From a virus (taxonomy: Duplodnaviria; Caudoviricetes), in IMG/VR virus record IMGVR_UViG_3300001525_000609, positions 1 to 64,000 of that record: a stretch of 64,000 bases of DNA; one strand, 5' to 3'. This document shows positions 7,664 through 49,531 of this stretch, piece by piece. The notes under the pieces were generated by a model. The model did not search any database. It saw only the letters and a program-made list of their open reading frames with translations, and was not told the DNA's origin. The position numbers and the translations under genes were made by a program. Each line of letters opens with the position of its first letter. The stretch's first letter is position 1.

Positions 7664-8830
7664 ATGAAATCCTCTACACTTTCGATTACATTTGCGACCA
7701 TGGTGCTGGTCGCGGCCTTCGCAGGCATCATCGTCGTTGGTGAGGACGCTGACGCTGGTGATGCTAAGGTCCTTCAGTACACGGTCGGCACAACCGTTTA
7801 TTCTGAGACCGTCAACACCGACACCGTGATCCTCAAAGACCTCGCGACTCTGGGCTGCACTATGCCCGAAGGCAAGACCTTTAAGGGATGGGCCTCCGCT
7901 GATCCTGATAAGACTACTCCGACTACGATCTACAGCGCAGGCTCGACCTATGCGCTATCGACCGGGCTGACCCTGTGGGCGGTCGTCGAGAAAGTGACCT
8001 ATAAAGTTACATTTGCTTACGAAGATGGAACTTCTATCCTTGCTAAAGAGAAGCTTGAGTATGACTCCACTCTGACTCTCCCTGCTAAGGCGACCTCTGT
8101 CGCTGCTGGAAAGGTCCTGGAGTTCCGTCAGATTGACGGGCAGATCTTCATCGGATGGGCGCTTGCTGACGAGCCTGGGCTGGTCGTCATCGCCGCCTCT
8201 GAGAAGACCATCAAGGTCGTCGGCGACGCCGATTACGTCCCTGTCTACGCCCATGACCCCGTGCTGACCTTTATCGTCGACGGCACCCAGATCTACAAAC
8301 ACACCGAGTATGGAGCAGTCCTTCCGACCGCTCCCTCTAAAGACGGATTCAGCTTCGTCGGCTGGTCCGACAGCGAGATCACCATCCCTGATGCAGACCT
8401 TGCAACCTATGTTGCGATCCTCCTCGATGATGTCACCCTGACTGCTGTCTGGGAGCCTGCCGTCTACACCGTCACCTTCGTCGTTGACGGCGAGACCGTC
8501 ATGGTCCAGTCCGTCAAGCACGGGGATGTCGCCACTGAGCCCAAGTTCGTGCCTGCAAAGGACGGATACAGCTTCACTGCGTGGGCTGTCGACAACAAAG
8601 CATACGATTTCGCCTCTCCCGTGACCGGTGACATGACCATCACTGCATCTTTCGAGAAGACTCCTGTTCCTGCACCTACGGGGCTCAAGAACCCGACTGT
8701 TCAGATGATTCTCATCATCGTCGGAACTATCGTTCTTGCGCTTATTGCCCTGATGATCTGGAAGAGGGATGTTATCAGAGCTGCACTGGTCAAGAAACTT
8801 GACAAGGGAAACAATGGAGGGTCTGCCTGA
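7664..8830 (+). CDS. Membrane-anchored adhesin-like protein with InlB B-repeat (Listeria-Bacteroides repeat) domains
   Basis: N-terminal signal peptide ending ...VVGEDADA. Repeated YTVTF..DG...P.KDGYSF..W units. C-terminal transmembrane helix followed by a basic tail (WKRD). Confidence 0.8.
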   Translation: MKSSTLSITFATMVLVAAFAGIIVVGEDADAGDAKVLQYTVGTTVYSETVNTDTVILKDLATLGCTMPEGKTFKGWASADPDKTTPTTIYSAGSTYALSTGLTLWAVVEKVTYKVTFAYEDGTSILAKEKLEYDSTLTLPAKATSVAAGKVLEFRQIDGQIFIGWALADEPGLVVIAASEKTIKVVGDADYVPVYAHDPVLTFIVDGTQIYKHTEYGAVLPTAPSKDGFSFVGWSDSEITIPDADLATYVAILLDDVTLTAVWEPAVYTVTFVVDGETVMVQSVKHGDVATEPKFVPAKDGYSFTAWAVDNKAYDFASPVTGDMTITASFEKTPVPAPTGLKNPTVQMILIIVGTIVLALIALMIWKRDVIRAALVKKLDKGNNGGSA

Positions 8831-20851: not shown

Positions 20852-21291
20852 TTCTTGTCGGTAGACCCGAGTCCGCCATTGCGATCCCGGGTCGGTACGA
20901 TTTCATCTTCAAGGAACAGGAATGGTACGAACATTCCCTGCATGTATGCCTTGCCTTTGGGTATGCATATGTCTTCATCAGCGCACAGGGAGCATTGTAT
21001 CTCGTCGCGATAATCCTGGTCGATGATGCCGACAGTATCGGCCAACCTGACTTTGTATTTGAACCCCAAGCCCGAACGGGGATACAGCATAAGAGCCCAA
21101 CTTGTAATCTCGTCCCTCCAACGGGGAGTGCAGTTGATCCTGAGCCTCTCTGTGCCGTCCAAAGATACACCTGTACCGAATGTTGTCCACTCACCTGCTT
21201 TAAGATGTATATCTGCTGGGGCAAAGAAATCATAGCACGCGCTTCCTTTAGTTGCCCTTGCAGGCATCTCGACTCCTTCCTTAGTCTTCAT
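20848..21291 (-). CDS. dut: Trimeric dUTPase
   Basis: Five motifs: SACYDF, PRSGL, GIIDQDYR, MQGMF, RNGGLGST. Confidence 0.95.
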   Translation of the reverse strand: MKTKEGVEMPARATKGSACYDFFAPADIHLKAGEWTTFGTGVSLDGTERLRINCTPRWRDEITSWALMLYPRSGLGFKYKVRLADTVGIIDQDYRDEIQCSLCADEDICIPKGKAYMQGMFVPFLFLEDEIVPTRDRNGGLGSTDKK

Positions 21292-21970
21292 CTGATCTCT
21301 CCTCCTGTTCTTCTCCTAAATCATCATCCAACACAGATTGGCCTTCCTCGGCATCGATCTTGGCTTTAGCTTCCGCGATCATCTCCACAAGGTCCTGATC
21401 CATCGCGGCGACATTGTAATATTTAGCTGGGGGCTTCTTCCTCAGAGCTTTCATAACGAGTTCATTGAGCTTACGTGCGGTTGCAGGATCGAGCCTGTTA
21501 TAGGGGGTGGTGATGCACACGCCCCCTACCCCGTCACCCATTATAGCGCCATTGAACAGCGTGCCTGCGAATTGCAAAGGCTCGACATCCCATGTATACT
21601 TGTAAATGACGTCCAGCGACACATCTACGTCGTCATGCCATACATCTTTCTTGTACAGCTTCCCATTGACGATCTTATCTTCAAGCTGTGCCGCGATAAT
21701 CTTGCTCTTGACCCCCTCATCCGTGAAGCAAGGATGCAATGCGAGCTTAATGCCCAACTCTGCATTCTTGACAGCGAACCCCGCCTCCATGAGGCCTATG
21801 ACATCTCCGCCCCAATAGCCCCCTTCAGGGTATTCGCACGGGGCGCGTATAGACATGATCACTTCATCGCCATCCAGCAGGCCGAGCATCTTGCATTCGT
21901 GACCGATGCTCACCCTGTATTGACCGTGGCCATTATCATGAATCTTTTTCACTAATCCTACTACAATCAT
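21281..21970 (-). CDS. AbrB-like N-terminal domain protein
   Basis: KKIHDNGHGQYRVSIGHECKMLGLLDGDEVIMSI. Confidence 0.55.
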   Translation of the reverse strand: MIVVGLVKKIHDNGHGQYRVSIGHECKMLGLLDGDEVIMSIRAPCEYPEGGYWGGDVIGLMEAGFAVKNAELGIKLALHPCFTDEGVKSKIIAAQLEDKIVNGKLYKKDVWHDDVDVSLDVIYKYTWDVEPLQFAGTLFNGAIMGDGVGGVCITTPYNRLDPATARKLNELVMKALRKKPPAKYYNVAAMDQDLVEMIAEAKAKIDAEEGQSVLDDDLGEEQEERSDED

Positions 21971-23031
21971 TCATTATCCCCCTTGAAATCAAGAACACAC
22001 TGTGTGGTTTCCTTCTTCCACGTCTTGTCGATGAACATCGCCCTGAATATCGCCGTCCAGCAAGGGACTGCACTGGAAGCCGCAGCTACACGATACAACA
22101 TGCCGTCAGACAGCCCCGCATCTTTTACCTTCTGGAACTCCACGTCGGTGTACCCCTGGAGCCTCCAGAATTCAAGAGGTGAGAACCGTCTGATCCTCAA
22201 GTTCCCTCTGACTGCATCTTCCACATTGTGCCTGTCGCTGACAGTGACAGAGATATGGCGGTCATAATCAGGATCATCGGGTAAAGGCTGTATCAGGAAC
22301 GGCCCTACGGGGCGACGGTCTGAATAGACTGTTATGAAAGAGCTGAATTTAGTAGCATCAGTGGGCATCCATTCGGGAGTCAACACATCATGGTATCTCC
22401 TGAACTTCATCTCACGACCTGCGATCTCCTCATACGACAACCACAAGTCTTTCACTGCGTCTTCAGATTCAAGAACGTCTTTCAATATCCTGCCATCTGG
22501 ACAAGGCTCAGGGAATATGAACTCCCCGTGATGCAGCGATGCTACCATGAACCATCTTCTGCGGTTCTGAGGCACCCCATAGTCGCTGGTATTCAAGACT
22601 TCGTACGATATCTCATACCCGAGGTCCTTTATCTCTTTGATAAAGAGATTGAAGAATCTGGAATATCTGCTGCTTAAGAGAAAAGGCGTAGACTCTGCAC
22701 AGATGTACTCCGGAAGATTGCCCTCGGACCTCGCACTCTCTAACAGATCTATAACGAACCATGCAAGCGATGCTTTAGTATCCCTGCCCTTGCGATTGAG
22801 AGGAGCGATCTTCAACGTCGGCCAATCGAAGAACAGAAGATCTGCACTAGGCATCGACGTCATATCTGATACGTCATCATAGCTCAAGACATCGCCATGC
22901 AATGCCTTGTATCCTTCGAGTATCTGCGGATACGACTCGCATACGATATCATCATGTTCGACCCCTGCACGATCGAGTGCAGTCTCGGCACCGCCTATCC
23001 CTGAGAACACATCAAATAGCTTCAGCGTCAT
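21967..23031 (-). CDS. C5-cytosine DNA methyltransferase homologue lacking the catalytic Cys
   Basis: Motif I FSGIGG, motif VIII YGVPQNRRR and motif IX RRFSPLEFWRLQGY are present. Motif IV reads DWPT instead of GxPC, and motif VI reads AEST instead of ENV. Confidence 0.85.
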   Translation of the reverse strand: MTLKLFDVFSGIGGAETALDRAGVEHDDIVCESYPQILEGYKALHGDVLSYDDVSDMTSMPSADLLFFDWPTLKIAPLNRKGRDTKASLAWFVIDLLESARSEGNLPEYICAESTPFLLSSRYSRFFNLFIKEIKDLGYEISYEVLNTSDYGVPQNRRRWFMVASLHHGEFIFPEPCPDGRILKDVLESEDAVKDLWLSYEEIAGREMKFRRYHDVLTPEWMPTDATKFSSFITVYSDRRPVGPFLIQPLPDDPDYDRHISVTVSDRHNVEDAVRGNLRIRRFSPLEFWRLQGYTDVEFQKVKDAGLSDGMLYRVAAASSAVPCWTAIFRAMFIDKTWKKETTQCVLDFKGDNE

Positions 23032-23033
23032 GT

Positions 23034-23315
23034 TCACTCCATATTGTCTGCCGCATTCCATTCGTGATTATACAACGCATTGACATCAAGGCTGATATCT
23101 GCCCATTGGGTGACATATTCCGTAGGCAGAGGTGCCGAGCCGGTATGCATGAATTGCAGGTGGTTAGAAGTTCTGTTCAGCTTGATGACGATATCATGGT
23201 CTCTTATTCTAGATGAGAGAATATGGCCATCTTCGAGCAGCTTCAATGCATCAGAGCCTCTGGGCATCGTACACCCCCTTGTCGTTAGCCGCATCGTAGA
23301 ACCAGCCCATATCAT
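23034..23315 (-). CDS. Small protein, distant DUF2829-like
   Basis: DALKLLEDGHIL...NALYNHEW resembles the family pattern EAL..LK.G...DLLA.DW. Confidence 0.35.
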   Translation of the reverse strand: MIWAGSTMRLTTRGCTMPRGSDALKLLEDGHILSSRIRDHDIVIKLNRTSNHLQFMHTGSAPLPTEYVTQWADISLDVNALYNHEWNAADNME

Positions 23316-23853
23316 TGAGTTTGAGCATCTGGTATAGAATCGTGTCTCCGGTTATATCGCAAGTGCCTTCTTCCTTTAAAGTCTCGATCGCGTCATTCCT
23401 CAGAGCCATATATGCGCGTGTGTTGAAGTGAAGCAGATCTTCTACTTCATCGCATACCACCCAGGGCGTATTGTAGATAGAGTCGATGACATCGACCGAT
23501 GTCAACGCCCAAACATCTTTGGGGATAAGATCGGTCGGGACTGTGAGGGCTACGTATATGCTCTTGCTGGTATACTTTTCATCCTGTTTGACAAGGCGCA
23601 TAGGGTCCAGTGCCAAGTACACGGGGTCAGAGCCATCATGCGGGACAGATTTCATAATGTGTCCAGACTCCAGATAGCTAAGCACAGTGGCTCCGCAGAC
23701 TTCCTTGTTCTTCATCTCCTCAGAGGTGTCGAGCGATATGTAGACTGAATTATGCTCTTTTAAGCCCAATTGCTTCGCCTCTGACGACAAGACGACAACG
23801 AGCGAGTTGCCTTGTTTTTTCAGTACCTTGCGGATAGCTTCAAATCCCTTCAT
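23251..23853 (-). CDS. AbrB-like domain fused to a domain paralogous to 23034-23315
   Basis: N-terminal RKVLKKQGNSLVVVLSSEAKQLGL; central VLSYLESGHIMKS...DSIYNTPW. Confidence 0.6.
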   Translation of the reverse strand: MKGFEAIRKVLKKQGNSLVVVLSSEAKQLGLKEHNSVYISLDTSEEMKNKEVCGATVLSYLESGHIMKSVPHDGSDPVYLALDPMRLVKQDEKYTSKSIYVALTVPTDLIPKDVWALTSVDVIDSIYNTPWVVCDEVEDLLHFNTRAYMALRNDAIETLKEEGTCDITGDTILYQMLKLNDMGWFYDAANDKGVYDAQRL

Positions 23854-23930
23854 AGTATTACTTTGTATTACTCATATATATTTATGAGTTTCGAAAATAA
23901 ATATTGAATTGAAATACAATGTAATTGAGG

Positions 23931-24003
23931 TAGTCCTGCTCGGATTCGAACCGAGGTCGCCTGATCCAAAGTCAGGAACGATTGACCGCTACGCCACAGG
24001 ACT
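23931..24003 (-). tRNA. tRNA-Gln(UUG), no encoded CCA, no intron
   Basis: Acceptor AGTCCTG/CAGGACT plus discriminator A; anticodon arm CCTGA-CTTTGGA-TCAGG; T arm CTCGG-TTCGAAT-CCGAG. The A1-U72 pair is typical of archaeal tRNA-Gln. Confidence 0.95.
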
Positions 24004-24422: not shown

Positions 24423-24689
24423 TCATTCCTCCAAGTCGTAATCCTCTTCCCAGGATATATTGCATGCGTCTTCGGGCATGCCCGTGTTCTCGCAGAAGCG
24501 CTTCCACGCTTTCTCCATGCGCTCCTCTCCCGTGTCCCCGGAGAGGAACAGGTCCGCTTCCTCTATGAGGTCTCTGAACTCTTTGGCGAGCCCTGCGACC
24601 TGCGTGTTGACAAGCTTGTTCTCGTCCCTTCTGAGGGCATAGAGCCAATCGCCTATCATGTATGTCCATTCCAATGTTCCACCGCTCAT
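24423..24689 (-). CDS. Hypothetical protein
   Basis: ATGA overlap with the upstream gene; LSGDTGE motif; acidic end. Confidence 0.55.
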   Translation of the reverse strand: MSGGTLEWTYMIGDWLYALRRDENKLVNTQVAGLAKEFRDLIEEADLFLSGDTGEERMEKAWKRFCENTGMPEDACNISWEEDYDLEE

Positions 24690-25345
24690 TCTTCCACCTT
24701 GTACCAATCGTCCGCCCATACGTCCTCAGGAGTTATGCCCGAGGATATGTACTGGTCGGTGTACACGCTCAGATAGCCGTGCTTGTCGCGCATCTCCGCG
24801 TCCGCAGGCCATGCCTTGCGCCTGAACTTCTCCGGGCTGATGCCCGATTCGATTCCTTTGAGCACCCAGCCGAACTGCCCCTCCTCGATGCAGTCGCGCA
24901 CGCAGAGCCAATCGTCCGCGACCTCGTCGGCAAGGGTCCACGAGTCGCGCAGATAGCCCCCGACGGCGGGAGACCTGCCCTTGAGCGGGCCGTCCCAGAA
25001 CAGGGCATAGCCCTTCGGCCATGCCTCGCGCCTGAAGTATATGGGCTCGGTGCCCTTGACGAGGTCCAGCGTGCTCTTGACTATCCGCAAGGTGTAGTGC
25101 GGCAGGGTCTCGGGCATCGCCACCCAATCGTCTGCCAGCATATCGGTCTGGCTGGCGAGCCAGGGCACCCTGTCGAAGGTGCCGTCTTCATGCTCTATCT
25201 CCATGTAGATATACGGCTTGGTCATCTTGCTGAACTCTGTGGGGCGCTGGAGCTTTATCCATTGGCATTTGCCGTTCCAGCCCATGCGGTAGAAACGGGG
25301 CTCGCTCCATGTGTAGAATCCTTCCAGCACATCTGAGAAGTACAT
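24686..25345 (-). CDS. Three tandem DUF2829 (Tad2-like) domains
   Basis: First repeat is canonical (R.GWNGK.QWI...PYIY...PWLASQTDMLADDW). Two further repeats have RR.AW and end in ADDW. Confidence 0.8.
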   Translation of the reverse strand: MYFSDVLEGFYTWSEPRFYRMGWNGKCQWIKLQRPTEFSKMTKPYIYMEIEHEDGTFDRVPWLASQTDMLADDWVAMPETLPHYTLRIVKSTLDLVKGTEPIYFRREAWPKGYALFWDGPLKGRSPAVGGYLRDSWTLADEVADDWLCVRDCIEEGQFGWVLKGIESGISPEKFRRKAWPADAEMRDKHGYLSVYTDQYISSGITPEDVWADDWYKVEE

Positions 25346-25349
25346 CCCA

Positions 25350-25748
25350 TCAGCTCCCGTACTTCGACAGTATCGCATCGATCTGCGCTTGCACGTTCGA
25401 CATGTCCGACTGAATCGAGTTGGAGAGATAGGCTTCCATGATCATGCAAGCCAGCATGCAGATCAGCGTTGCTGCCACAAAGGTTCCGACAGTCCAGATA
25501 CGAGAATCGACATCACGTTTCTTGACAACAGTCCATCTTCCACTAATGATGGTCTCTTCGCGTCCTGTGTATGAAATGTACAGCCATGATGAGAGCAGGG
25601 CAAGACCGAAGCCTATTACGGCACATGTCGCCAGCCAATAGGGCAATGCCGTCAAGTCTATGTGGTCTATGTTATACTGGAATTGAGCGAGCTGTCCTCT
25701 CAGCTCGCTCAGCCGCAGCCCGTCCTCATACGTTATGTTCATGTCCAT
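25350..25748 (-). CDS. Membrane protein (two TM helices)
   Basis: Two hydrophobic segments in a 132-aa ORF. Confidence 0.55.
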   Translation of the reverse strand: MDMNITYEDGLRLSELRGQLAQFQYNIDHIDLTALPYWLATCAVIGFGLALLSSWLYISYTGREETIISGRWTVVKKRDVDSRIWTVGTFVAATLICMLACMIMEAYLSNSIQSDMSNVQAQIDAILSKYGS

Positions 25749-37640: not shown

Positions 37641-38114
37641 TCAGTCCTCGCCCTCTGCCTTCTCGCGCTCTATGCGGAGCGCGGTCAGGCAGTCGAGCAT
37701 GTCATAGGCCTCGGCCTCCGGGACGCCGTGTTCCGCCATGAGGCTCCATGCCGTCTCGGAGCCGTCCCATCCGCCGTCGGACAGGACGATGCATCCGTCG
37801 AGGAACGGCGTGCCGCGCATCGCCGTCAGCGATGCGATCCACTTCTGGAGGAACGCGGGGTCGTCCTCGGCACGGTCCGCCATCTCCCTGCGCCATGCGA
37901 TGCGCTCTGTCTCCTCGATCAGATCGCGCAGGCACGCGCCGCTCTCCGAGATCACCATGAAGACCGCGCCCTGCGCGGTCATGTACTTCTTGCGGTCGGC
38001 GGCCGATTGCTTCAGCCAACGGACGTCGGCCATGCGCATCGCCATGTCCAGGCTGTCGTAGGACTCCGCATCCCCGCAGTTCCCGTTGAACCACTCCACG
38101 ATGTAGGCCATCAT
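37641..38114 (-). CDS. Hypothetical protein carrying the W..S...K.Y domain
   Basis: RWLKQSAADRKKYMTAQGAVFMVISE; ATGA-coupled. Confidence 0.55.
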   Translation of the reverse strand: MMAYIVEWFNGNCGDAESYDSLDMAMRMADVRWLKQSAADRKKYMTAQGAVFMVISESGACLRDLIEETERIAWRREMADRAEDDPAFLQKWIASLTAMRGTPFLDGCIVLSDGGWDGSETAWSLMAEHGVPEAEAYDMLDCLTALRIEREKAEGED

Positions 38115-39312
38115 GCCACCTCGTGCGCATAGGGGCCGTGCCCCGCGATCCCTGTCACCATGGGCATGGCCATGGCCTTGCAGTCGGGGCATACATAGCC
38201 CAGGTTGAACCCCTCGCAGGACGATGCGTCAGCGTCAACGGGGCTGTCGCACATCTTCTTCATGCGGAGCAGGCACATCCTGCAATGGATGGGCTCGTCA
38301 TCATCGAACTCCTGTGATACGATCGCAGGGTCGTCGTCGCGGCGCACGGCGCCGCATGCGGCGCACTTTATCATCAGTACTAGCTTCTTGTCTGTCATCT
38401 TTGCACTCTCCTTGTCTCGAAACCGTTTCGTAATGGGTTTGTGCCGTGCATCGCACGGCACAGGGCGATGTCACTCGTCCTCCCGGTCGTAGCTCTCCTC
38501 GATGATGTCGTCGTAGAAGTACCCGAGCTCCCTGCACAGGTCTCTGATGGCGTCTGTCCTGATGTCGAACCATTCGATGGCGTGACGGCAGGCGCGCGGG
38601 TCTCCCGCCGCGCCGTCTATGGCCCTGAGCATGAGCCTCCTCTCGTCGTCCGTCGTCTTGATGACGGCCTTGAAGAACCGCTCCTCGTCCATCAGTCGCA
38701 CCTCCTTTCGAAGCCCTTCTCGTGCTCTCCGAGCTCCACGCCCTTCTCGGCGTAGTACGTCTCCCTGCCCTTGAGGATCATCTTGCCGACCTCCCTCATC
38801 CCGAAGGCGACGCCTCCGATCAGGCTGACCATGAGCGCCTGCTCGCGCTCGGTCAGCCCAGGGCACGCCAGGGACTTGATCTCTGCGATGCCGTCCATCG
38901 CCGAGTTGTACCGGTCGATGATGGTCGCCAGCGTGCTGATGTCGTGCACCAGCTCGGTGGTCTCTTGCGAGACCTCCGCATCCTCTCTTATCGTGTACTC
39001 TTCCGTCATTCCGTCACCTCCGCATAGATGGCGCTCGTGCCCTCCTTTTGATGCGACTTCTTCGTGCGCTGTCCCATGATGCACAGGACGGCCTCGATGA
39101 ACTCGGGGGCGAGCTCTTGGCTGAGGAAGTTCCTCAGCCAGACCATCGCCTCGTCGTTCAGGGGACGGGCAACGATGCCCATCCAGTCCAGAGCCTCCTT
39201 GATGATCTGGTCGCGGATCTTCTCGGGCAGGTCTGCGAACCTGTCTGCTGCGGACTCCGCGCTCCTGCGGGGGCTGCCCCACACGACATAGCTCACCTTG
39301 ACGTCGTTGTTC

Positions 39313-40152
<840 letters not shown>

Positions 40153-41630
40153 TTCTGTGTCTCCTTTGTCTTGTTTCTAAGGGGGTTCTAAAGGGTTTGT
40201 CATTGGTTTCTAGCGTCAGTTCTCCCAGCACACCGTGTACAGTCCGGGGCAGTCTATCAGCACCCTGTCGGCGCCGTCTTCCCTTGCCAGGTCTTCCTCC
40301 ACATCCAGGACGTCGTGGATTATCTCCTGTGCAGTCAGGAAGACCATGTCTGCGCCGTTGTAGTAGCTCCCCCTGCTGTACAGGCGGGCGATGGGCGCAG
40401 ACAACTCCGCCTTGTCGTCGTATCTTTCGGCGTCCCTGATGATATCGGCCAGCATCGCGGCGATAAGGTCGGGCCTCTCGGATTCGATTGTGTCTTTGCA
40501 CAGGTCGGGCCTGCATCTCAGTACGAACATCTTCATCTCTCCTTGTCGTTTTTAATCGGTTTCTAAGGGTGAAGCGGGGTTGACCCGCTTCTTATGTACC
40601 TGATTAGACTGATAGTTTTTATTTTTTACTATCAAATCTGCTGTACTGTATTACGCATCATCGGAGTCGGCATCCCAGATGACCTGGCATCCGTCGATGT
40701 CGAGGACGATCCCGGGGCAGTCCCTCTTCTCGGCCGCCGCGAGGATCTCGAAGACGATGTCCTCTGCGCTCCTCACGAGGAGCGTGCCGTAGGGGTACTC
40801 CGATCCGAGCGCGACATACTGCTGCGCGATGTCGTCGAGCCTCCTAAGGGCATAGTCGCGGGCGATCCTCATCGCCCTCTGGTTGTCGCCGTCCTCGCGG
40901 CGCTCGACCTCGTAGACGATGGTCTGCAGGCGGTCGATGAGCTTGCACACTGCCGTGGCAGCAGCCACGGCATCGTCGCCGTTGTACACGGCGTTGTCGC
41001 TGTAGTCTTGAATTCTGAACGTCATTTGATTCACTTCCGAAAGAAGATGCGAGGGGATTCCTCCCCTCAGGGTGTTCTCAGGCGAGCATCTCGCAGAGCA
41101 CGAGGAGCATGTTGCATGCCCCTTCGTCGTACTCGCTCAGGTCTTCCGTCCCGTTCGTAGGGCGGTCGCAGATTCCCTGCCCGACACGGGCGAGGACGCC
41201 TGCGGTGAGCTGGGGGCTCACGTCGGCCTCTTCGGTGACGAGACCGAAGATAAGGCTGTCGATGACGGCCCTGGCGCCGCGGATGTGCTCGGCAGTCCAG
41301 TCCGCGGGGAAGGCGTCGCGGTCTGAGACCGCGAGCCTCGCTGTCACGAGGTCGGCCATTTCGAGGTACTTCTGTCCGTTTGCGTTTGTCTTCATTTTTC
41401 AAACTCTCCTTTGTCTTGTTTCTAAGGCGTTTCTTAACGGGTTTCGGATGCATTTCGCATCCTCACAGTCTAGATAGTCGTTCCAGTATATATTTTTTAC
41501 TGAAAGATTTGGTTGAATGTATTACACAGGTACGATGCGATGCACCGTGCCTGTCGGCACGATCCCGGGCCCGGGATCGGGCACGCGGGGGGGGGGAACG
41601 GCTGACCCTTCGGGGTCAGCCGCCCGATCC

Positions 41631-42392
41631 TCAGAATTCGAAGAGGTGCTTCTGCTCGCTCTCATAAAGGGCCTCGCGCAGCCACTGGTCAAGGGTCTGC
41701 TCCAAGGCATACCCGAACGCTCCGGAGTCGAACTCGCTCCCATCTACACGGGAGATGAGGGTGTAGTATGCCCAATAGGGCCATTCCTCAAGCTCCTCTT
41801 CATCTCCATATCCATCCCATTCCTCCATGATGATGGCGAGGGTGGGGGAGATGCACATCGTCCTGCCTTTCCAGCCGTTGCCGCCCATGATGATGCTGCG
41901 GGCCTCCGCCTCCGAGACCTCCTCGGCACCGCTGAGGTCGTGCACATCCGGCTCGGACATGCATCTCCTCGGCTTGAGCGTGATATTGAAATAGGTGTCG
42001 CTGGGGATGTCGTAGGACGGCTGGAGGTAGACGTCCATGAGGCCGAGGGCCACTGCCCTCTCGTCCTCTTCGTCCGCCTGGGCACAGGAGCAGCCGTTGT
42101 TGTACAGGCCCTCCACGCAGCTGAGGTGCTCCGTGAAGTACATCCTGCCGTCGATCCCGGGTTCGGCCTTGGGGCATGACCCCTGGTTGGCGATGACTGA
42201 GACGTGGCAGCCCTCCTCGTCGAAGACGCTGCCGTGCAGCTCGCGCTCTATGCGGTCGATGAGCTCCATGATGTGCGACACAGGGAAGGCAGCGAACTCC
42301 TCGATGGTTACGGGGTAGCCCACGGCCTCGGATATCGCATCGACCGGTGCCCTGAATTCGACGTTCTTTGCTTCGAAGTTGAACATTGTCAT
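41631..42392 (-). CDS. Acidic hypothetical protein
   Basis: ATG 42392 preceded by the conserved AAAGGAGAG leader. Confidence 0.6.
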   Translation of the reverse strand: MTMFNFEAKNVEFRAPVDAISEAVGYPVTIEEFAAFPVSHIMELIDRIERELHGSVFDEEGCHVSVIANQGSCPKAEPGIDGRMYFTEHLSCVEGLYNNGCSCAQADEEDERAVALGLMDVYLQPSYDIPSDTYFNITLKPRRCMSEPDVHDLSGAEEVSEAEARSIIMGGNGWKGRTMCISPTLAIIMEEWDGYGDEEELEEWPYWAYYTLISRVDGSEFDSGAFGYALEQTLDQWLREALYESEQKHLFEF

Positions 42393-42513
42393 TTCTGTAC
42401 TCTCCTTTGTGTTCGAGGGGTTTCGAAAGGGTTTGGGAAAGGGGTCGGCACAGCCCCCTGCCCTTGAGGGGGCAGGGGAGTCGCTGCGGATCCGTGAGGA
42501 TCCGCATGGCTGC

Positions 42514-42960
42514 TCAGCAGGCCATGTTCTCGACCTTCTCGGTGTCCAGCTCGCCGTCCGCATCGAAGATGCGGCTTCCGACGGGCTGCGCCCTGTCGAT
42601 GTCCCTGACCATCCAATCGATGAACTGGTCGTCGTCCTCGTCCTCGTCGTTTTCAGGCGCGTCGATGCGCTCGACGATGTTGAAGTCATCGTCGATGATG
42701 TACGTCCCGTTGTCGAGTGCCTCGGCAAGGTTGCTGAGGACGTCGATCCCGATGCTGAGGTTCCCGCCGAAGTAGTTGGCGATGACCTGGACGAGCCTCG
42801 CGAATCCGTAGTCGAACTGGTTCCCGGTCCTGAACCTGCGCAGCTGGGCATACTTGAGGAATGCCCTTACCGATCCGGCGTCTCCGTTCCAGTGGAGGTA
42901 GATCCCCACGCCGTTGTTCTCGTAGTTCTGCTTGGTCGTTATGATTGCTCTGTCTCCCAT
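42514..42960 (-). CDS. Phage-type hypothetical protein (IYLHWNG motif)
   Basis: MGDRAII...GVGIYLHWNG; conserved leader upstream. Confidence 0.6.
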   Translation of the reverse strand: MGDRAIITTKQNYENNGVGIYLHWNGDAGSVRAFLKYAQLRRFRTGNQFDYGFARLVQVIANYFGGNLSIGIDVLSNLAEALDNGTYIIDDDFNIVERIDAPENDEDEDDDQFIDWMVRDIDRAQPVGSRIFDADGELDTEKVENMAC

Positions 42961-43155
42961 ATCGATACTCTCCTGTTGTTCTGGAAGGGGTTTCTAAGCT
43001 GTTTGAACGGTTGGTGTTAGCGTCATTGCGGAGCGCCCGGGCACAGGCACGGGCACACGGGTCGGAGGGCGATCCTCCGGCTGTTCGCCGGAGGACAGCC
43101 CCCTGCCCCCTCAAGGGCAGGGGGAATCATGGACCCTTGTCATCGTCCATGTCCC

Positions 43156-44082
43156 TCACAGCCCCTCGCTCTCGACCTTCTGGAGGATGGTCGTGGCCAG
43201 CTTAGCGATGGCCTCGTCTTCGGTCGCGTACCGGTCTCTCGTGTCGCGGAAGTCCTCGCAAAGAGGCTGCACGATGAGGGGCACGCATCCGTCTCCGATG
43301 GTCGCCTTGGCCATGGCCAGGACCGCCTCTCTCGCCCCCTTCGACCCCAGCTCCGTGCTCAGGCTGTACCCGAGCCCGGGGTTGCGGGGGAACCGTGGAT
43401 TGGTCGTCAGCCAGTTGAATACCAGTCCTCTGAAGTAGGACGGGTTGGCAACCATAAAGAGGAGCTTGGGGATGTTGAGCGCCTCTTCTGCGCGCTTCAT
43501 CGGCATCATGCACGAGAGGACCCTCGGCCCTGTGCGGCTCCCCGTCACAACAGTGGTCATGATGTTGACCTCCACCCTGAACCCCGACCTCTCCAGGGAC
43601 GCGATGGCGATGGCCACTGCTGTCGCGGTGCTCTTGAGGTCCTCGCCGCTGATCCTGCAGTAGACCGCAGGATCGAGGACCATGCGGATGACCTTGGACT
43701 TGACCTTCCGAGTCACGACCCTGGTCATGCATTCCGGGATCCCCTGAACGTACAGGGGAACGACTACATTCCCGCCTGTGACGTCGCGCTTGACCTCTCT
43801 GAGCTTGGCGATCTCTCTGCTGAGCTCGCCCTTGCACCTCTGGACCTTGCTGATGAAGGCGGGGTCGCTGATCCCGGACCTGATGCGCTCCTGGAGCTCC
43901 GCTCCCGACCTGAACCCGGACCACTGAGGATCGTACACGGGGGCACCGTGTATGAAGTCCTTGTTGATGTCCGCGTGGATGGGCTTACGGCCCTTGAGGG
44001 TCGTAAGGGCGTCCGCCATGGAGGAGAAGACCTCCATCTCGGCCTTGAGGCCGTTCTTGAGGGGAACCGTTGCGGTTCTCAT
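43156..44082 (-). CDS. VWA-like partner of the MoxR ATPase
   Basis: Directly downstream of the AAA gene. AVAIAIASLERSGFRVEV, VKAEE-like MKRAEE and ANPSYFR patterns typical of MoxR-associated VWA-like proteins. Confidence 0.6.
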   Translation of the reverse strand: MRTATVPLKNGLKAEMEVFSSMADALTTLKGRKPIHADINKDFIHGAPVYDPQWSGFRSGAELQERIRSGISDPAFISKVQRCKGELSREIAKLREVKRDVTGGNVVVPLYVQGIPECMTRVVTRKVKSKVIRMVLDPAVYCRISGEDLKSTATAVAIAIASLERSGFRVEVNIMTTVVTGSRTGPRVLSCMMPMKRAEEALNIPKLLFMVANPSYFRGLVFNWLTTNPRFPRNPGLGYSLSTELGSKGAREAVLAMAKATIGDGCVPLIVQPLCEDFRDTRDRYATEDEAIAKLATTILQKVESEGL

Positions 44083-45333
44083 TCAGAACACCTCCTTCAT
44101 GGCCGCCTGGTAGTCCCTGAGGGACTTGATGTAAGGGTTGCGCACCGTCTTATCCATCCCTTCCAGGATGGTGGCCAGTGTGTCCTTCGTGACCGCCGCC
44201 TTGAGGAGTGCGACCTCAAAGGCGAACGTCGTCCTGTCTCCCTTGGACATCCCTGCTATGTAGGGGTCCTTGGAGGCCAGGATATCGGCGAATGTCTTCC
44301 CGCCCCTGTAGGAGGGCACGTAATCCGTCAGCCCCTGCTTGATGCAGGAGTTGCGGAACTCCCTGATGAAGACGGCGACCTTCTCGGCCTCCTCCGGGGG
44401 TATCCCTGAGGCCTTGATGCAGGCCAGGGATATCTCATCCTCATAGTTGACCTCGACCACACAGAAGCGGTCAAGGGTGGACGCATCCAACCTGTTGGCT
44501 GTCCCGTACTCCTCGGTCGCGCCGCGTCCGTTGGTGTTGGCCGTGGCGATGATCCTCAGCTCCGGGTTGACCGGAACGACCCCACGGACAGGGACATCCA
44601 TGAGGTTGTTGGCGATCATGGCGTTCATGGGGATGAGCGCCTCCGGGAGCGACCTGTCGACCTCCTCAAGGAGGAGGAGGCCAGGCTCGGTGATCGCCGC
44701 GGTCACTTGGCTCTTGACCTCGTTCCCGTTGGCGTCCGCGTACCCCGTCACATCGCTCCTCATCTGGGGCGATGTGAGCATGAAGAGCTGCTTGTCCAGC
44801 TCCTTCGCGATCCTGACCGCCATCTCGGTCTTCCCCGTCCCTCTCGGGCCGACCAGGAGGACCTTCTTCCCCATGGAGACCAGGGCCTTGACCTGCTCGT
44901 AGGTCCTGGGCTTGATGTAGCCGTCGGCATCCGCCTCCGGCTTCTTGGGCTTGGGCCTCGGCTCCTTCGGAGCCGGGGGAACCTCTTCCTTTGGCTCCTC
45001 CTTTGGCTCCTCCTTGGGGGCTTGGGCCGGGCCTTCCGATGGAAGGTAGAAGGCCCTGTCCTCCTCGGCCAGCCTGTCCCAGTTGGCGATGATGCGCTCG
45101 GCCATGACCGTTATCCCGTGCCACCCTGCGGTGTACAGGGAGCGGTAGGCGGCGATCATCCCCGTGATGACCCTCGCATCGGGCTCAAGGCCCTTGGCCT
45201 TGAGCTGCTCCTCGACCGCTCCGGCGAGGCACGCGATGCGCGTGTCGTTGTCGATGCAGGCCTTGGCCTTGGGGTTGATGGTGATGTCGGCGGTCTTGGC
45301 GATTCTGTACATGTTGTCTGCGATGTAGGACAT
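44083..45333 (-). CDS. MoxR/CobS-like AAA+ ATPase
   Basis: Walker A GPRGTGKT, Walker B LLLLEEVD, IATANT, Arg finger LDASTLDRF. Confidence 0.9.
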   Translation of the reverse strand: MSYIADNMYRIAKTADITINPKAKACIDNDTRIACLAGAVEEQLKAKGLEPDARVITGMIAAYRSLYTAGWHGITVMAERIIANWDRLAEEDRAFYLPSEGPAQAPKEEPKEEPKEEVPPAPKEPRPKPKKPEADADGYIKPRTYEQVKALVSMGKKVLLVGPRGTGKTEMAVRIAKELDKQLFMLTSPQMRSDVTGYADANGNEVKSQVTAAITEPGLLLLEEVDRSLPEALIPMNAMIANNLMDVPVRGVVPVNPELRIIATANTNGRGATEEYGTANRLDASTLDRFCVVEVNYEDEISLACIKASGIPPEEAEKVAVFIREFRNSCIKQGLTDYVPSYRGGKTFADILASKDPYIAGMSKGDRTTFAFEVALLKAAVTKDTLATILEGMDKTVRNPYIKSLRDYQAAMKEVF

Positions 45334-45364
45334 TTTGGTACTCTCCTTTTTCGTGGTAAAAAGT

Positions 45365-45871
45365 TTAGTTGCCAGGAGTGGCGGGGGTGTCGGTGTTCTG
45401 CTGCTTGAGCTCATCCAGATAGTCGCGCGACCTAACAGGGTCGTGCGTCTGGAATCCGATGACGGGCTCAAGTCTGCTGGCGGCTTCGAGATCTGCGCCG
45501 TTCGGCAGTGATGCGAACAGGGCACGGACCTCGGTCTCCTTCGGCTTGAAGTTCTTCTCATACGCGATGGCGGACTGCTTTGCTAAGGCAGCCACGGCCT
45601 CGCGTGCTCCCGCATCCGACATCACAACATCGATGTCGTGCGTTGTCTTGGAGGTCCTCACGAATGTCCAGTTGGTCGACTCGACCGACTGGATGAGCTG
45701 GCCCGTAGCTTCATCACGGGCCTCCTCCTGTGACCATGCATGCATGAGCAATGCTTCATTGGCCAGCTTGAGCTGGCGGACTTGCTCTTCGAGATTCGCG
45801 ATCTCGGTGGCGTTCTTGTCCGCCATGTCGATTAGCAACTTGAACTTGGATACTTGTGGTAGTGATGCCAT
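45365..45871 (-). CDS. Coiled-coil hypothetical protein, first gene of the leftward arm
   Basis: AAGGAGG RBS; N-terminal heptad pattern. Confidence 0.6.
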   Translation of the reverse strand: MASLPQVSKFKLLIDMADKNATEIANLEEQVRQLKLANEALLMHAWSQEEARDEATGQLIQSVESTNWTFVRTSKTTHDIDVVMSDAGAREAVAALAKQSAIAYEKNFKPKETEVRALFASLPNGADLEAASRLEPVIGFQTHDPVRSRDYLDELKQQNTDTPATPGN

Positions 45872-46266
45872 TTATGTATGCCTCCTTGTGTGATCAGGGT
45901 CGGCGGCGATGATGATCGTCGCCGAGTTTGGTGGCGGTCGCATTCGACCGCGCTGGCGGTGATGGATCCGCGCGGTTGCGCGGATGATTTTATCCGAGGA
46001 CGGATCGCCAAGCCCACGAGGACGCCGGCGGCCATGAGGTCGCGGCCAGGTCGGAACGGTCGCGCACATCTCCGAGGGTGGTTGAAGCTCGGAGGTAGCA
46101 CGCGGCCGCGATGCTATCGGAGATTCGCGTCGGCCGATGATCGTCATCGCACATGATAGGATGGACGAGCTACGTCCCATGTGCTCGGAAGGATGAACTG
46201 CGCGATCGCTCAGAGGGGATTCGTCTCCCATGTAACCCGATGGGGGCCTGCGGCCGGGTCGCGGCC

Positions 46267-46491
46267 GCACGTCGTAACGTGCAACTGCTAGCGACTCGCT
46301 TAAGCCAGCCAGCGCATGGACTCAATCCATGAGCGACGGGATTAATCCAACCCATCCGATAACCCAACCCGTGGGTTGGATTGTCCGTAGCTGGACTAGT
46401 CCAGTCGCTCATGGGATTGGACTTATCCCATGAGCAACCGCGCGGATTCATGCCGAGACTAAACCCGTCCTGTTGGATTAGGGTTTAATCC
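46267..46491. other. Cluster of interlocking inverted repeats in the divergent non-coding region
   Basis: At least seven stems, three of them 11 bp long, plus a 14-bp perfect palindrome; see findings. Confidence 0.75.
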
Positions 46492-46876
46492 CGCATCAGA
46501 TACAATCCGACGCTTTACGTATCTAAGACTCCCGTAGGCGCCTTTTTGTCATGACGTTGTACACGTCACACGACTGGCCACTGTATGTCGCGGTTAGGGA
46601 TATATACCCTTCGGTCAATCGGCACAAAATGTATTACATATGCTACGGCCCCGGTATCCCTGCTCGGCCCGCGATCGCGCGCGTGGATCGGGCGCGTCCG
46701 CATACACGTCATGCGTGTGCAGTACCTGCCTATGTGACCGCGATACGGGCCTACCCCCGGGTATAGAAATGAGGGGGTCGATGTTCGTCACGGCTGTCAA
46801 CTCCTAATCTGTATACCGTCATACCTATATACTGTCAAACCCTCACCCGTTCTGAGCGCACAGCTCATGTGATAAC

Positions 46877-47623
46877 ATGGAATTCGAATGGACAGATGCG
46901 ATGGCGACCAAGACCGATGCGGCGAAGCTCTCTGCGATGCTCTCGGCCGTGTCGTCTCAGACCGACCGCGTGAACGTCGCCATCGGAGCCGACGGCTCTG
47001 TGACGGTGCGCGCGGTCTCCCCCGACCACGTCACGATGGTCGGGATCGATGCGGAAGCAGGCACGGTGATGGGTATTTGCTCCCCCGTGTCGTTCGAAGC
47101 GGACGTGAACGCATGGCTTGCCTTCCTCCGCAGGTGCAAAGGCGACGTCGCTATGCTCTGGCTCGGCTCGTCGGCGGTCCAGCTCAGATGCCGTGGCGTC
47201 AGCGCCGTCCTGCGTCTCGACCCTCCCGGCCCCGATGTGCGCATACCGTCTCTGAGCCTTGAGGACCAGTGCGTGTTCGACCCTGCCGTGCTGAAGGACA
47301 TGGCGGCCCTCGTGCCCAAGTCCAGCGTCGCGTACTGGCGCATGTCGCTCACGCCCTCGGGCCTGAACGTGTCCGTCCGCGACGATACGGGCACAGGCCC
47401 CGGCGCAGAGCTCGCAGCCGGCGACATGGACCTCTGCGACGTCCCCTCGGGGCAGGCCGAAGCATCGTTCCCCCGCGAGAGATGGACCGACGTGCTGAAG
47501 GCCCTTCCTTCCGGCGCGATCGGATTGGAGCTCGGCAACGACTATCCCTGCCGCGTGACGTTCGGCGGTGTCGGATGGAGCGGGCAGTGGATGTGCGCGC
47601 CCATCATAGAGTCGAGGCGATGA
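46877..47623 (+). CDS. pcn: PCNA-like DNA sliding clamp
   Basis: 248 aa with VSPDHVTMV, interdomain IPSL, LELGNDYPCRV and C-terminal MCAPIIE, matching the PCNA D.SHV.LV, L..DYP and LAP.I motifs. Confidence 0.85.
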   Translation: MEFEWTDAMATKTDAAKLSAMLSAVSSQTDRVNVAIGADGSVTVRAVSPDHVTMVGIDAEAGTVMGICSPVSFEADVNAWLAFLRRCKGDVAMLWLGSSAVQLRCRGVSAVLRLDPPGPDVRIPSLSLEDQCVFDPAVLKDMAALVPKSSVAYWRMSLTPSGLNVSVRDDTGTGPGAELAAGDMDLCDVPSGQAEASFPRERWTDVLKALPSGAIGLELGNDYPCRVTFGGVGWSGQWMCAPIIESRR

Positions 47624-47624
47624 C

Positions 47625-47846
47625 ATGAGAGGCGCGCAGGTGAGATGGTGCGAGCGCTGCGGGAAATGGTACAGGGCCGATGAGAGAGACCTCAGGACCT
47701 GCACCGTGTGCGGGCAGGTCCAGCTGGAGTACAGATGCTATCGTTGCGGTCGCAGGTGGACGCCGAAGAAGGAGTCGCCCAAGACGTGCCCTAAGTGCGG
47801 AAGCCCGTATTGGGACCGCGCTAGGGTGATGACCGATGAAGAATGA
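47625..47846 (+). CDS. Double zinc-ribbon protein
   Basis: CERC..CTVC and CYRC...PKTCPKCGSPYW. Confidence 0.75.
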   Translation: MRGAQVRWCERCGKWYRADERDLRTCTVCGQVQLEYRCYRCGRRWTPKKESPKTCPKCGSPYWDRARVMTDEE

Positions 47847-47861
47847 ATGAGGTGAGTTTAT

Positions 47862-48251
47862 ATGTCAGAAGGATATACAGGAGATAGTATGGTGCATGAT
47901 CGTGACAGTGCGTTGCAGGCGGTTGCTGCCGCCGACCAATGCCTGCAGGATCTGAAACGCATGATGCTCAACGGCGAGGTTCCGGGCTGCAAAGCTGCGT
48001 TCGCTGTCGCAGACGCCATCGCTTCCACAAGTGCCACGATGGTATGGCTGAAGGGCTGTTCTACCGATTCTCAGCCCGGAGCCGCGACAGAGGAGAAGGG
48101 GGCGGACGGGAACGCCCCTGCGAGCAGCAGTCCTGACGTGTGCGGAGTCCAACCGACCGCATCCGCCGAGAGCGTCACGGTCATGCCCATATCTGATGAC
48201 GAGAGCACAGTCAGAGTGGCCGATTCCGTATTCAGGAGCGAGGTCCTATGA
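47862..48251 (+). CDS. Hypothetical protein
   Basis: GAGGTGAG RBS; ATGA coupling to the next gene. Confidence 0.55.
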   Translation: MSEGYTGDSMVHDRDSALQAVAAADQCLQDLKRMMLNGEVPGCKAAFAVADAIASTSATMVWLKGCSTDSQPGAATEEKGADGNAPASSSPDVCGVQPTASAESVTVMPISDDESTVRVADSVFRSEVL

Positions 48252-48469
48252 TAGTCAATTATCGTGTCACCGCATCGAAGTTCGACGGCGACGCGTTCAT
48301 CCTCGAACAGTTCGAGACCCGCATCGACGCGGAAGCGTATTACCGCGATCTGCAAGCCGATGCCGATGGCCTGCTGTCGTCGATACAATGCGGGTCCATC
48401 AGGCTGATGTTCGAGGAGTTCCTCGGAGGCCAGTGGGTGTGCACCTCCAAGAAGGTCGTGGTATTATGA
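48248..48469 (+). CDS. Small hypothetical protein
   Basis: ATGA overlaps at both ends. Confidence 0.55.
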   Translation: MIVNYRVTASKFDGDAFILEQFETRIDAEAYYRDLQADADGLLSSIQCGSIRLMFEEFLGGQWVCTSKKVVVL

Positions 48470-48888
48470 AGAGCTCTACGCCGAAGGCGGGGAAGAAGGA
48501 GGATGGCAAGGCTCCTGCAGAGCCTTCGTGCATCCTCGCGCTGAACAAGGGCAACATGGACAAGATGGGCGAGTCCAGGCGCTATCGCGACGCCCTTGCG
48601 GTCATGCAGGCCGTCGCGGATGCGTCGGGAGGCCGTCTCAGACGGGGCGAGTACATGTCGCTCCTGACAGGCTGTCCTCTCAAAGGCGACCCTCAGAGGG
48701 TGTTCGATGACGTGCTGTCCCGTGTGGACATACAGAAGTCCGAGTCCGACGAGGAGGCCGTGGCCATCGCGTCGCGCATACTCGCCACGGCAGACCGCGT
48801 GGGGTGCCCGAGAGAGGCGTTCGCCATGGACACTGTCAGGAGGCTGCTGGACATGATGCTCATGAGATATGACGTATGGGGTGCCTGA
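48466..48888 (+). CDS. Hypothetical protein
   Basis: ATG 48466 overlaps the upstream TGA. Confidence 0.55.
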   Translation: MKSSTPKAGKKEDGKAPAEPSCILALNKGNMDKMGESRRYRDALAVMQAVADASGGRLRRGEYMSLLTGCPLKGDPQRVFDDVLSRVDIQKSESDEEAVAIASRILATADRVGCPREAFAMDTVRRLLDMMLMRYDVWGA

Positions 48889-48889
48889 C

Positions 48890-49270
48890 ATGGGCAGAAG
48901 GAGGCAGGTCCAGCCCGAAGGAGGGATAACCCTCGACTTCGGCACGGAGGCTCCCGCATCGGAAGCCGTGCCCGTCTCGTCCGAAACGGAAGCACAGGCC
49001 CCTGTGAAGCCCCTGACCGTCTGCGAGCAGATCAAGGCGGCCGTGGGCACCGACGGCCCCTGCACCGTCCCCACTCTGATCGAGACCAGGGAGAACGGCA
49101 CGACCGTATGGTATCTGGTGGACATCGACGGCCCGTCTGTCGAGAAGGCTTGGTCTGCATACAAGGCCCTCCGCCCCGTGCCTGTCCGCACCGAGTTCCT
49201 CGACATCCTGAGGGAGATCGCAGGGGATGCGGGCGCTAAGTTCCGCACCATATCCAAAATAGCCCTATGA
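48890..49270 (+). CDS. Hypothetical protein
   Basis: Coupled to the upstream stop; followed by a GC hairpin at about 49341-49372. Confidence 0.55.
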   Translation: MGRRRQVQPEGGITLDFGTEAPASEAVPVSSETEAQAPVKPLTVCEQIKAAVGTDGPCTVPTLIETRENGTTVWYLVDIDGPSVEKAWSAYKALRPVPVRTEFLDILREIAGDAGAKFRTISKIAL

Positions 49271-49531
49271 TTTAAATATCAGTCGGGACATATAAGGTAC
49301 GTCTTGGGACCTCTTGTCTTGTCGGGCGTCATTCACAGCGGGGCCTGCTCCCTTCTAGGGGGCGGCGGGCCCCGTCACCTCTTTTCATACCTGTCATAAT
49401 CGTTATATAGGGCGTTATCGATGTTAGTCCGCCTTCAGGTAAGGTCGGATCGCATCTGTTCCGGGTGCGATTGGGGTTCAAAGGCGGCCCCATTCGCGCC
49501 ATTTTTATATCCTCATACTGTTCGGCATGGC

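Follow-up and report, generated by a model that had tools for sequence, protein, structure and literature searches.

A triple Tad2-like protein, possibly a signal sponge, encoded by a tailed virus with a presumed archaeal host

Tad2 proteins are short homotetramers, arranged as a dimer of dimers in the solved structures, in which the ligand pockets lie between protomers. Members of this family bind 3'cADPR, 2'cADPR, His-ADPR, N7-cADPR, cyclic dinucleotides or cUMP/cCMP; the family as a whole covers signals of Thoeris types I, II and IV, CBASS and Pycsar, and homologues use two separate pockets. Contacts to gcADPR have been described for W25, N26, W73, S76, T78 and D79 of SPO1 Tad2 (10.1101/2023.05.01.538930) and for W21, N22, G23, M76, A78 and T82 of HgmTad2, together with V84, W87, L88, S90, T92 and D93 of the latter protein (10.1101/2023.11.15.567273). 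Tad2 domains are also found joined to other sponges, as in Acb4-Tad2 of Pasteurella phage Pm86 and in Sequestin-Tad2, and such fusions are frequent and block two systems (10.1101/2025.07.12.664507). Among viruses of archaea, a Tad2-like protein has been reported in the Asgard virus JinchiV3, with the authors noting that the hosts lack complete Thoeris or CBASS (PMC13700489), and a Tad2 homologue in a Methanosarcinaceae provirus (10.1101/2025.11.27.691053). We found no description of a three-domain Tad2 form in the literature, and two recent sponge surveys make no mention of tandem or duplicated forms. Signal sponges are known as short homo-oligomers with pockets between identical protomers, whereas the viral protein described here carries one intact and two degenerate copies of the domain in a single chain. 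Its gene lies in a window of 64,000 nucleotides (the whole stretch of DNA that was analysed), which is part of an IMG/VR record of 82,622 bp rated 98% complete.

The gene and its three repeats

The stop-free frame of the gene translates to 219 amino acids (Table 1) and stays open in the 5' direction as far as an ATG at 25378. A start at this upstream codon was set aside because the homologues all share the methionine at 25345. The latter start is the correct one, since it sits 4 nt past the stop codon of the upstream gene, is common to the homologues and places the beginning of the Tad2-like profile match at residue 1 of the protein. An overlapping open reading frame on the plus strand (24662-25336) was found to be without support.

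Table 1. Coordinates in the window of the triple Tad2-like gene, its repeats and the flanking genes
Feature	Position	Strand	Basis or characteristics
Triple Tad2-like protein gene	24686..25345	-	Stop codon 24686-24688; translation, PF11195 match and full-length homologues
R1, canonical Tad2/DUF2829 domain	25112..25345	-	Residues 1-78; GWNGK loop (W23 N24 G25)
R2, degenerate Tad2-like copy	24896..25111	-	Residues 79-150; GWNG loop replaced by FRREAWP
R3, diverged Tad2-like copy	24689..24895	-	Residues 151-219; FGWVLKG helix, FRRKAWP, PEDVWADDW
132-aa ORFan upstream, same operon, probably a membrane protein	25350..25748	-	ORF call; no Pfam or PHROG match
88-aa ORFan downstream	24423..24689	-	ATG overlaps the triple-domain stop (ATGA); no PHROG match

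The tetrapeptide ADDW recurs at residues 71, 143 and 211, against an expectation of about 0.005 occurrences from composition, and 200,000 shuffles never produced three. The protein was divided into three repeats of approximately 70 amino acids each, with the limits given in Table 1. R1, which carries PWLASQTDMLADDW spanning W62 to W74, matches Pfam PF11195 (Tad2-like, formerly DUF2829) with its residues 1-75, which cover positions 1-71 of the 73 in the profile, at 56.8 bits (curated cut-off 25) and E 3e-15. It also matches two PHROGs, both of unknown function, and retains 13 of the 13 invariant columns of a 101-sequence family alignment. R2, which ends with SWTLADEVADDW, gave no match when searched alone against Pfam, and R3 alone reached 10 bits against PF11195 (E 1.1), below the cut-off, aligning over profile positions 3-71. 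The repeats were also compared with hhalign as five-sequence profiles, together with a family profile built from 96 members. R3 aligned end to end with the profile of the 96 family proteins (84% probability, E 7.6e-6, 62 columns) and R2 aligned with R3 (91% probability, E 9.2e-7, 54 columns). The direct match of R2 to the family (29% probability, E about 6e-4) covers the C-terminal D-x-x-A-D-D-W motif only, so R2 is tied to the family via R3. Comparison of the single sequences gave z-scores of 6.5 for R2 versus R3, 2.4 for R1 versus R2 and 1.6 for R1 versus R3. The profile comparison supports common descent of the repeats, and shuffling, Pfam and hhalign confirm the description in the earlier note of three tandem repeats ending in ADDW, the first canonical and the others diverged. 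A HMMER profile of R2/R3 returned nothing at E <= 10 from the PDB sequences, an NCBIfam search with R2/R3 likewise returned nothing, and three HMMs (canonical, short-type and R2/R3) run over the genome identified no other Tad2-like domain, the best hit having an E-value of 5 (23254-23871); Pfam likewise gave no match at 1e-3 in 21281-23853.

Full-length homologues of the triple protein share 99, 84, 80 and 42% identity with it. Relative to the 84%-identical homologue on contig L003, dN/dS is 0.20 for the whole gene and 0.045, 0.34 and 0.23 for R1, R2 and R3, respectively. All three repeats are under purifying selection, R1 being by far the most constrained and R2 the least. A word search of 5.8 billion proteins recovered three full-length relatives (99, 84 and 80%) and about 95 proteins matching R1 only, and many of the word-search matches are sponge fusions (PF13876 + PF11195). 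An exhaustive phmmer search against 1.8 billion representatives, with R2-R3 as the query, recovered nothing beyond the cluster of the query itself and P0101, a relative of 210 aa with 44% identity over R2-R3, and a word search starting from the R2-R3 region of P0101 returned only P0101 itself. A cluster look-up for the triple form yielded 8 distinct sequences in 4 clusters, all of them metagenomic, and IMG/VR and the GTDB species genomes held no additional triple form. Judged by these searches, the FRRxxWP subtype represented by R2 and R3 is without detectable relatives beyond the 8 sequences.

Predicted structure and pocket residues

AlphaFold2 models of the protein reached a pLDDT of 48.7 with an alignment of 5 sequences and 72.6 with one of 101 sequences. 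Means over 10-residue blocks were 75-92 in R1, 39-60 in R2 and 78-91 in R3, and the pTM of the monomer was 0.46, at which the packing of the domains is not readable from the model. R1, R2 and R3 have the same order of elements in this model (helix, four strands, short helix, strand), which is the topology described for SPO1 Tad2. Foldseek with the full model gave 21 matches in the PDB at E <= 0.001, all of which are Tad2 chains (SPO1, HgmTad2/AcrIIA7, SptTad2 and Myroides Tad2), with the structural alignments covering model residues 1-78 or 1-79, that is, R1 only. VIA-align superposed R1 on SPO1 Tad2 (8sme/8wje) with a Z-score of 10.4 and an rmsd of 1.8-2.0 Å over 71-72 residues, bearing out for R1 the Tad2 fold anticipated from the sequence. 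The ESM Atlas contains a separate model of the protein and lends independent support. With this model, R3 matched a cluster with a PF11195 share of 79% (query TM 0.73, target TM 0.63, 61 residues) and R2 matched Tad2-like clusters with TM of 0.60-0.65 by query; the feature-based scores of this resource (0.83) are leads only. The triple Tad2-like architecture is in our view strongly supported for R1, well supported for R3 and moderately supported for R2.

In BFVD, Lactobacillus phage proteins aligned with the three-domain model over 120-190 columns. Foldseek alignments of 184-220 columns, with high rmsd, were obtained for phage proteins that are annotated as Tad2-like or unnamed, namely A0A4Y5FEH8 (Lactobacillus phage 521B, 229 aa), A0A385E9B6 (253 aa) and A0A3Q8HY85 (phage Iacchus, 242 aa). 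Large Lactobacillus phages may encode other multi-domain Tad2-like proteins.

The low model confidence of R2, and the fact that HMMER-level searches with R2-R3 find their own tiny family alone, could be taken to mean that only R1 is functional, the other two repeats being either duplicates in decay or a C-terminal extension that is non-homologous and shares short motifs by chance. We consider this very improbable, as dN/dS in the two repeats is 0.23-0.34 rather than about 1, their motifs are invariant at 42% overall identity and the HH probabilities are 84-91%. The identical order of secondary-structure elements, and the Tad2-like clusters found as structural look-alikes, also count against it.

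Pocket residues were mapped via a phmmer alignment of R1 to 8kbi. The residues of R1 at contact positions are W23, N24, G25, I50, T56, W62, L63, S65, T67 and D68. R1 is identical to the listed SPO1 contacts and to W21, N22, G23, W87, L88, S90, T92 and D93 of HgmTad2, and differs only at the equivalents of HgmTad2 A78 and V84, which are H52 and D58. Among the pocket equivalents, R2 retains only W109, W136 and D140, and R3 only W179 and D208. Both lack the Asn and Gly of the GWNG loop, in place of which stands F-R-R-x-x-W-P, and the SQT of the WLASQTD helix. The FRR-x-x-W-P and D-x-x-A-x-D-W motifs and the retained Trp and Asp residues are invariant in R2 and R3 of all five full-length sequences (5/5), down to 42% identity. 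The insertion of 35-41 residues that makes the second, cyclic-dinucleotide pocket of HgmTad2 (10.1101/2023.11.15.567273) is absent from R1, R2 and R3.

The comparison with Tad2 pockets therefore has a different outcome along the chain, with the main gcADPR contacts kept in R1 and the Asn, Gly, Ser and Thr contacts lost from R2 and R3. The earlier note had put forward a fused, asymmetric sponge whose diverged repeats may form pockets for different immune nucleotides. Its first element, a chain of three Tad2-like domains with the canonical one in front, holds, but the lost contacts speak against its second, that R2 and R3 provide pockets for other nucleotides. In such a multi-specific sponge, R2:R3 or R1:R2/3 pockets would accept a second or third immune nucleotide, allowing one chain to block several systems. 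The invariance of the Trp, the Asp and the preceding Arg-Arg pair of R2/R3 across 42%-identical homologues would be consistent with this, as would a dN/dS below 1 in both repeats, the occurrence of two separate pockets among Tad2 homologues in a family spanning Thoeris I/II/IV, CBASS and Pycsar, and the blocking of two systems by heterotypic sponge fusions (10.1101/2025.07.12.664507). We nevertheless regard multi-specificity as rather unlikely, given that the polar-contact residues (Asn/Gly of GWNG, Ser/Thr of SQTD) are gone from both repeats, which argues against a full second specificity, that neither repeat has the long beta2-beta5 insertion of the HgmTad2 cyclic-dinucleotide pocket, and that no part of the protein is under weaker constraint, or folded with lower confidence, than R2.

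The virus, its presumed host and the proposed function

The virus encodes a large terminase subunit, ThyX, a C5 methylase, an N6/N4 methylase, a VapE-like helicase, an SNF2 helicase and a reverse transcriptase. Its portal protein had three matches among 50,697 phage records. The top two come from two copies of one Methanomassiliicoccales virus, vir335 (83.1 kb; 51% identity, E 2e-171), and the third is a Methanofastidiosa virus. The helicase is 47% identical to that of vir335, and other phages among the matches listed reach at most about 29%; the terminase is equally close to vir335 and to Bacillus phages. These similarities suggest kinship to viruses of gut methanogens (Methanomassiliicoccales) and a presumed archaeal host. 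The portal and helicase agree with the earlier assignment to a methanogen virus, the host itself being placed by kinship to vir335 only.

Several further features of the genome were recorded. The reverse transcriptase (RVT_1, 63 bits) has in its vicinity a protein of 388 aa that contains Listeria-Bacteroides (Flg_new) repeats (737-1702 and 7664-8830 of the window, both on the plus strand), and the two may constitute a diversity-generating retroelement with its target. In vir215, a Methanomassiliicoccales virus, a reverse transcriptase likewise adjoins a tail protein and the Tad2-like gene. The G+C fraction is 0.58-0.63 in positions 38000-52000 of the window versus 0.47-0.56 elsewhere in it. 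A crude set of non-overlapping ORFs from the whole 82,622-bp record uses the stop codons TGA (54), TAA (25) and TAG (10), and several of the ORFs ending in TAG are oriented against the genes around them and appear spurious. Genuine TAG stops thus seem to be rare, which would fit a pyrrolysine-decoding host. A tRNA-Gln (UUG) gene at 23929-24003 on the minus strand belongs to the same operon as the triple-domain gene, beyond the trio of small genes on the 3' side of the latter, and a 21-nt piece of its anticodon arm has exact matches in unrelated bacterial MAGs only.

Local synteny around the triple-domain gene is conserved. The same 132-aa gene precedes the homologue on the relative contig L003, and genes of 88, 76 and 52 aa lie 3' of the homologues in both L003 and L004. 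According to Pfam and PHROG searches, all of these neighbours (132, 88, 76 and 52 aa) are ORFans. The surrounding minus-strand block consists of small accessory genes and includes ThyX, with a dUTPase present there in relatives. This location among ThyX, other early genes and, in relatives, dUTPase could indicate that the protein has no anti-defence role and instead binds nucleotides or ADP-ribose as a module of the nucleotide metabolism or regulation of the virus, serving for example in metabolite buffering or sensing. A role of this kind is also hinted at by vir335 (L002:719-1561), the nearest characterised relative of the virus, in which a Tad2-like domain (PF11195, 55 bits) with S-E-W-L-Y-M-G in place of the G-W-N-G-K loop is fused to DUF3310, annotated by the depositors as a nucleotide kinase. 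The same PF11195 + PF11753 pairing occurs in P0008, and the presumed host is without a documented signalling defence system. Anti-defence genes are, however, often interspersed among early nucleotide-metabolism genes. Moreover, the main gcADPR contact set is preserved in R1, and all experimentally characterised PF11195 proteins in the literature covered are immune-signal sponges. On balance a non-immune role of this kind appears unlikely to us, though it is a serious alternative.

With respect to host defences, three Methanomassiliicoccales genomes contain only CRISPR systems of subtype I-C, an I-A/I-B hybrid and 'PreFran' (PMC4153887), and our literature search found no paper linking Methanomassiliicoccales with Thoeris. 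An anti-CRISPR reading of the AcrIIA7 type was rejected, as the CRISPR systems of these three genomes do not include type II (PMC4153887) and inhibition of Cas9 by AcrIIA7/HgmTad2 was not reproduced (10.1101/2023.11.15.567273).

We put at roughly even the chance that the protein is a Tad2-family signal sponge consisting of a single chain of three Tad2-like domains, in which R2 and R3 act mainly as partner protomers, and we regard this as its most likely role. By analogy with characterised Tad2 proteins, R1 would sequester a host alarm signal, either derived from ADP-ribose or a cyclic nucleotide, early in infection. R2 and R3 are old, diverged duplicates that keep the core of the fold and, from the pocket, the Trp (W109, W179) and the Asp (D140, D208); they would serve for the most part as covalently attached partners. 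Two protomers are required to make a Tad2 pocket, so the partner of R1 must be either the R1 of a second chain or R2/R3. R2 and R3 may accordingly stabilise an assembly that presents R1:R1' pockets between chains, or there may be asymmetric, weaker R1:R2/R3 or R2:R3 pockets; an asymmetric pocket would be feasible with the Trp and Asp that the two diverged repeats keep. Against the sponge reading, there is no simple correspondence between three domains and the Tad2 tetramer, and R2 is modelled poorly and owes its link to the family to R3 and a short motif. The CRISPR systems of the three Methanomassiliicoccales genomes, the lack of complete Thoeris or CBASS in the hosts of the Asgard virus and the DUF3310 fusion of vir335 count on the same side. 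Overall, we consider a sponge function plausible and the multi-ligand idea speculative. It appears distinctly improbable that the protein is a single-chain pseudo-oligomer whose asymmetric R1:R2/R3 or R2:R3 pockets accept an immune signal of archaea outside the range of all known sponges, for which a cyclic oligoadenylate and a TIR product of Methanomassiliicoccales not described so far are candidates. It would then be the first sponge tailored to archaeal immune signalling, and a homo-oligomeric sponge would have evolved into a covalent hetero-oligomer.

Whichever partners R1 has, the triple chain offers a natural experiment in the passage from a homo-oligomer to a covalent, asymmetric assembly, and could reveal the protomer contacts on which binding depends. 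It is also one more among the few hints that methanogen viruses counter nucleotide-based immune signalling; if they do, Methanomassiliicoccales should have a signalling defence system not yet described. The practical value of the protein will be modest until a ligand is found.

Comparison with known Tad2 and sponge systems

SPO1 Tad2 (Gp34.65; 8SME/8SMF/8SMG/8WJE) resembles R1 in its fold, in the equivalents of its contact residues and in its short beta2-beta3 region, and both proteins are virus-encoded. It consists, however, of one 89-aa domain and assembles as a homotetramer, as opposed to three domains per chain of which two are without a full pocket, and it comes from a Bacillus phage whereas the host of the present virus is presumed to be archaeal. 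The best sequence matches among solved structures are HgmTad2/AcrIIA7 (8KBI-8KBM) and SptTad2 (8WJD), with E-values of 8e-5 and 6e-4, respectively, SPO1 Tad2 also being among the closest; HgmTad2/AcrIIA7 and SptTad2 share with R1 identical GWNGK and WLASQTDMLA(N/D)DW motifs; the second pocket created by the HgmTad2 insertion sets that protein apart from R1-R3. Acb4-Tad2 and Sequestin-Tad2 likewise place several sponge-type domains on one polypeptide, but they join unrelated families, each modelled as its own homo-oligomer, whereas the present protein comprises three copies of one fold, two of them degenerate.

Closer in composition are proteins and gene pairs that combine canonical and non-canonical Tad2-like units. 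Using jackhmmer, we found that 8 of 96 sampled family members (P0005, P0046, P0058, P0061-P0063, P0073 and P0093) are two-domain proteins of approximately 160 aa with a non-canonical N-terminal Tad2-like domain. Adjacent canonical and non-canonical genes occur in Bacillus phage phi4J1 (XO28_0062/0063, L092:2201-2706) and Lactobacillus phage Lenus (gp035/gp036, L091:642-1500). The non-canonical partner copy reads, for example, R-S-I-W-G-G-Y-W-F ... D-M-L-A-E-D-W-E and is without GWNGK and WLASQTD. This recurrent pairing suggests that hetero-oligomers or paired specificities are a general theme of the family. The P0063-type proteins and the phi4J1 and Lenus pairs differ from the present protein in having two units, of which the C-terminal one is usually canonical, rather than three that begin with the canonical one.

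A Tad2-like domain in an archaeal tailed virus, as found here, is shared with JinchiV3, the Methanosarcinaceae provirus, vir215 and vir335. The architectures of vir215, a single 77-aa Tad2-like domain, and of vir335, with its DUF3310 fusion, are unlike the triple form, and the reports on archaeal viruses mention no triple. Tad2 in archaeal viruses and two-domain fusions are thus already known, and it is the rare triple form that is new within this known family.
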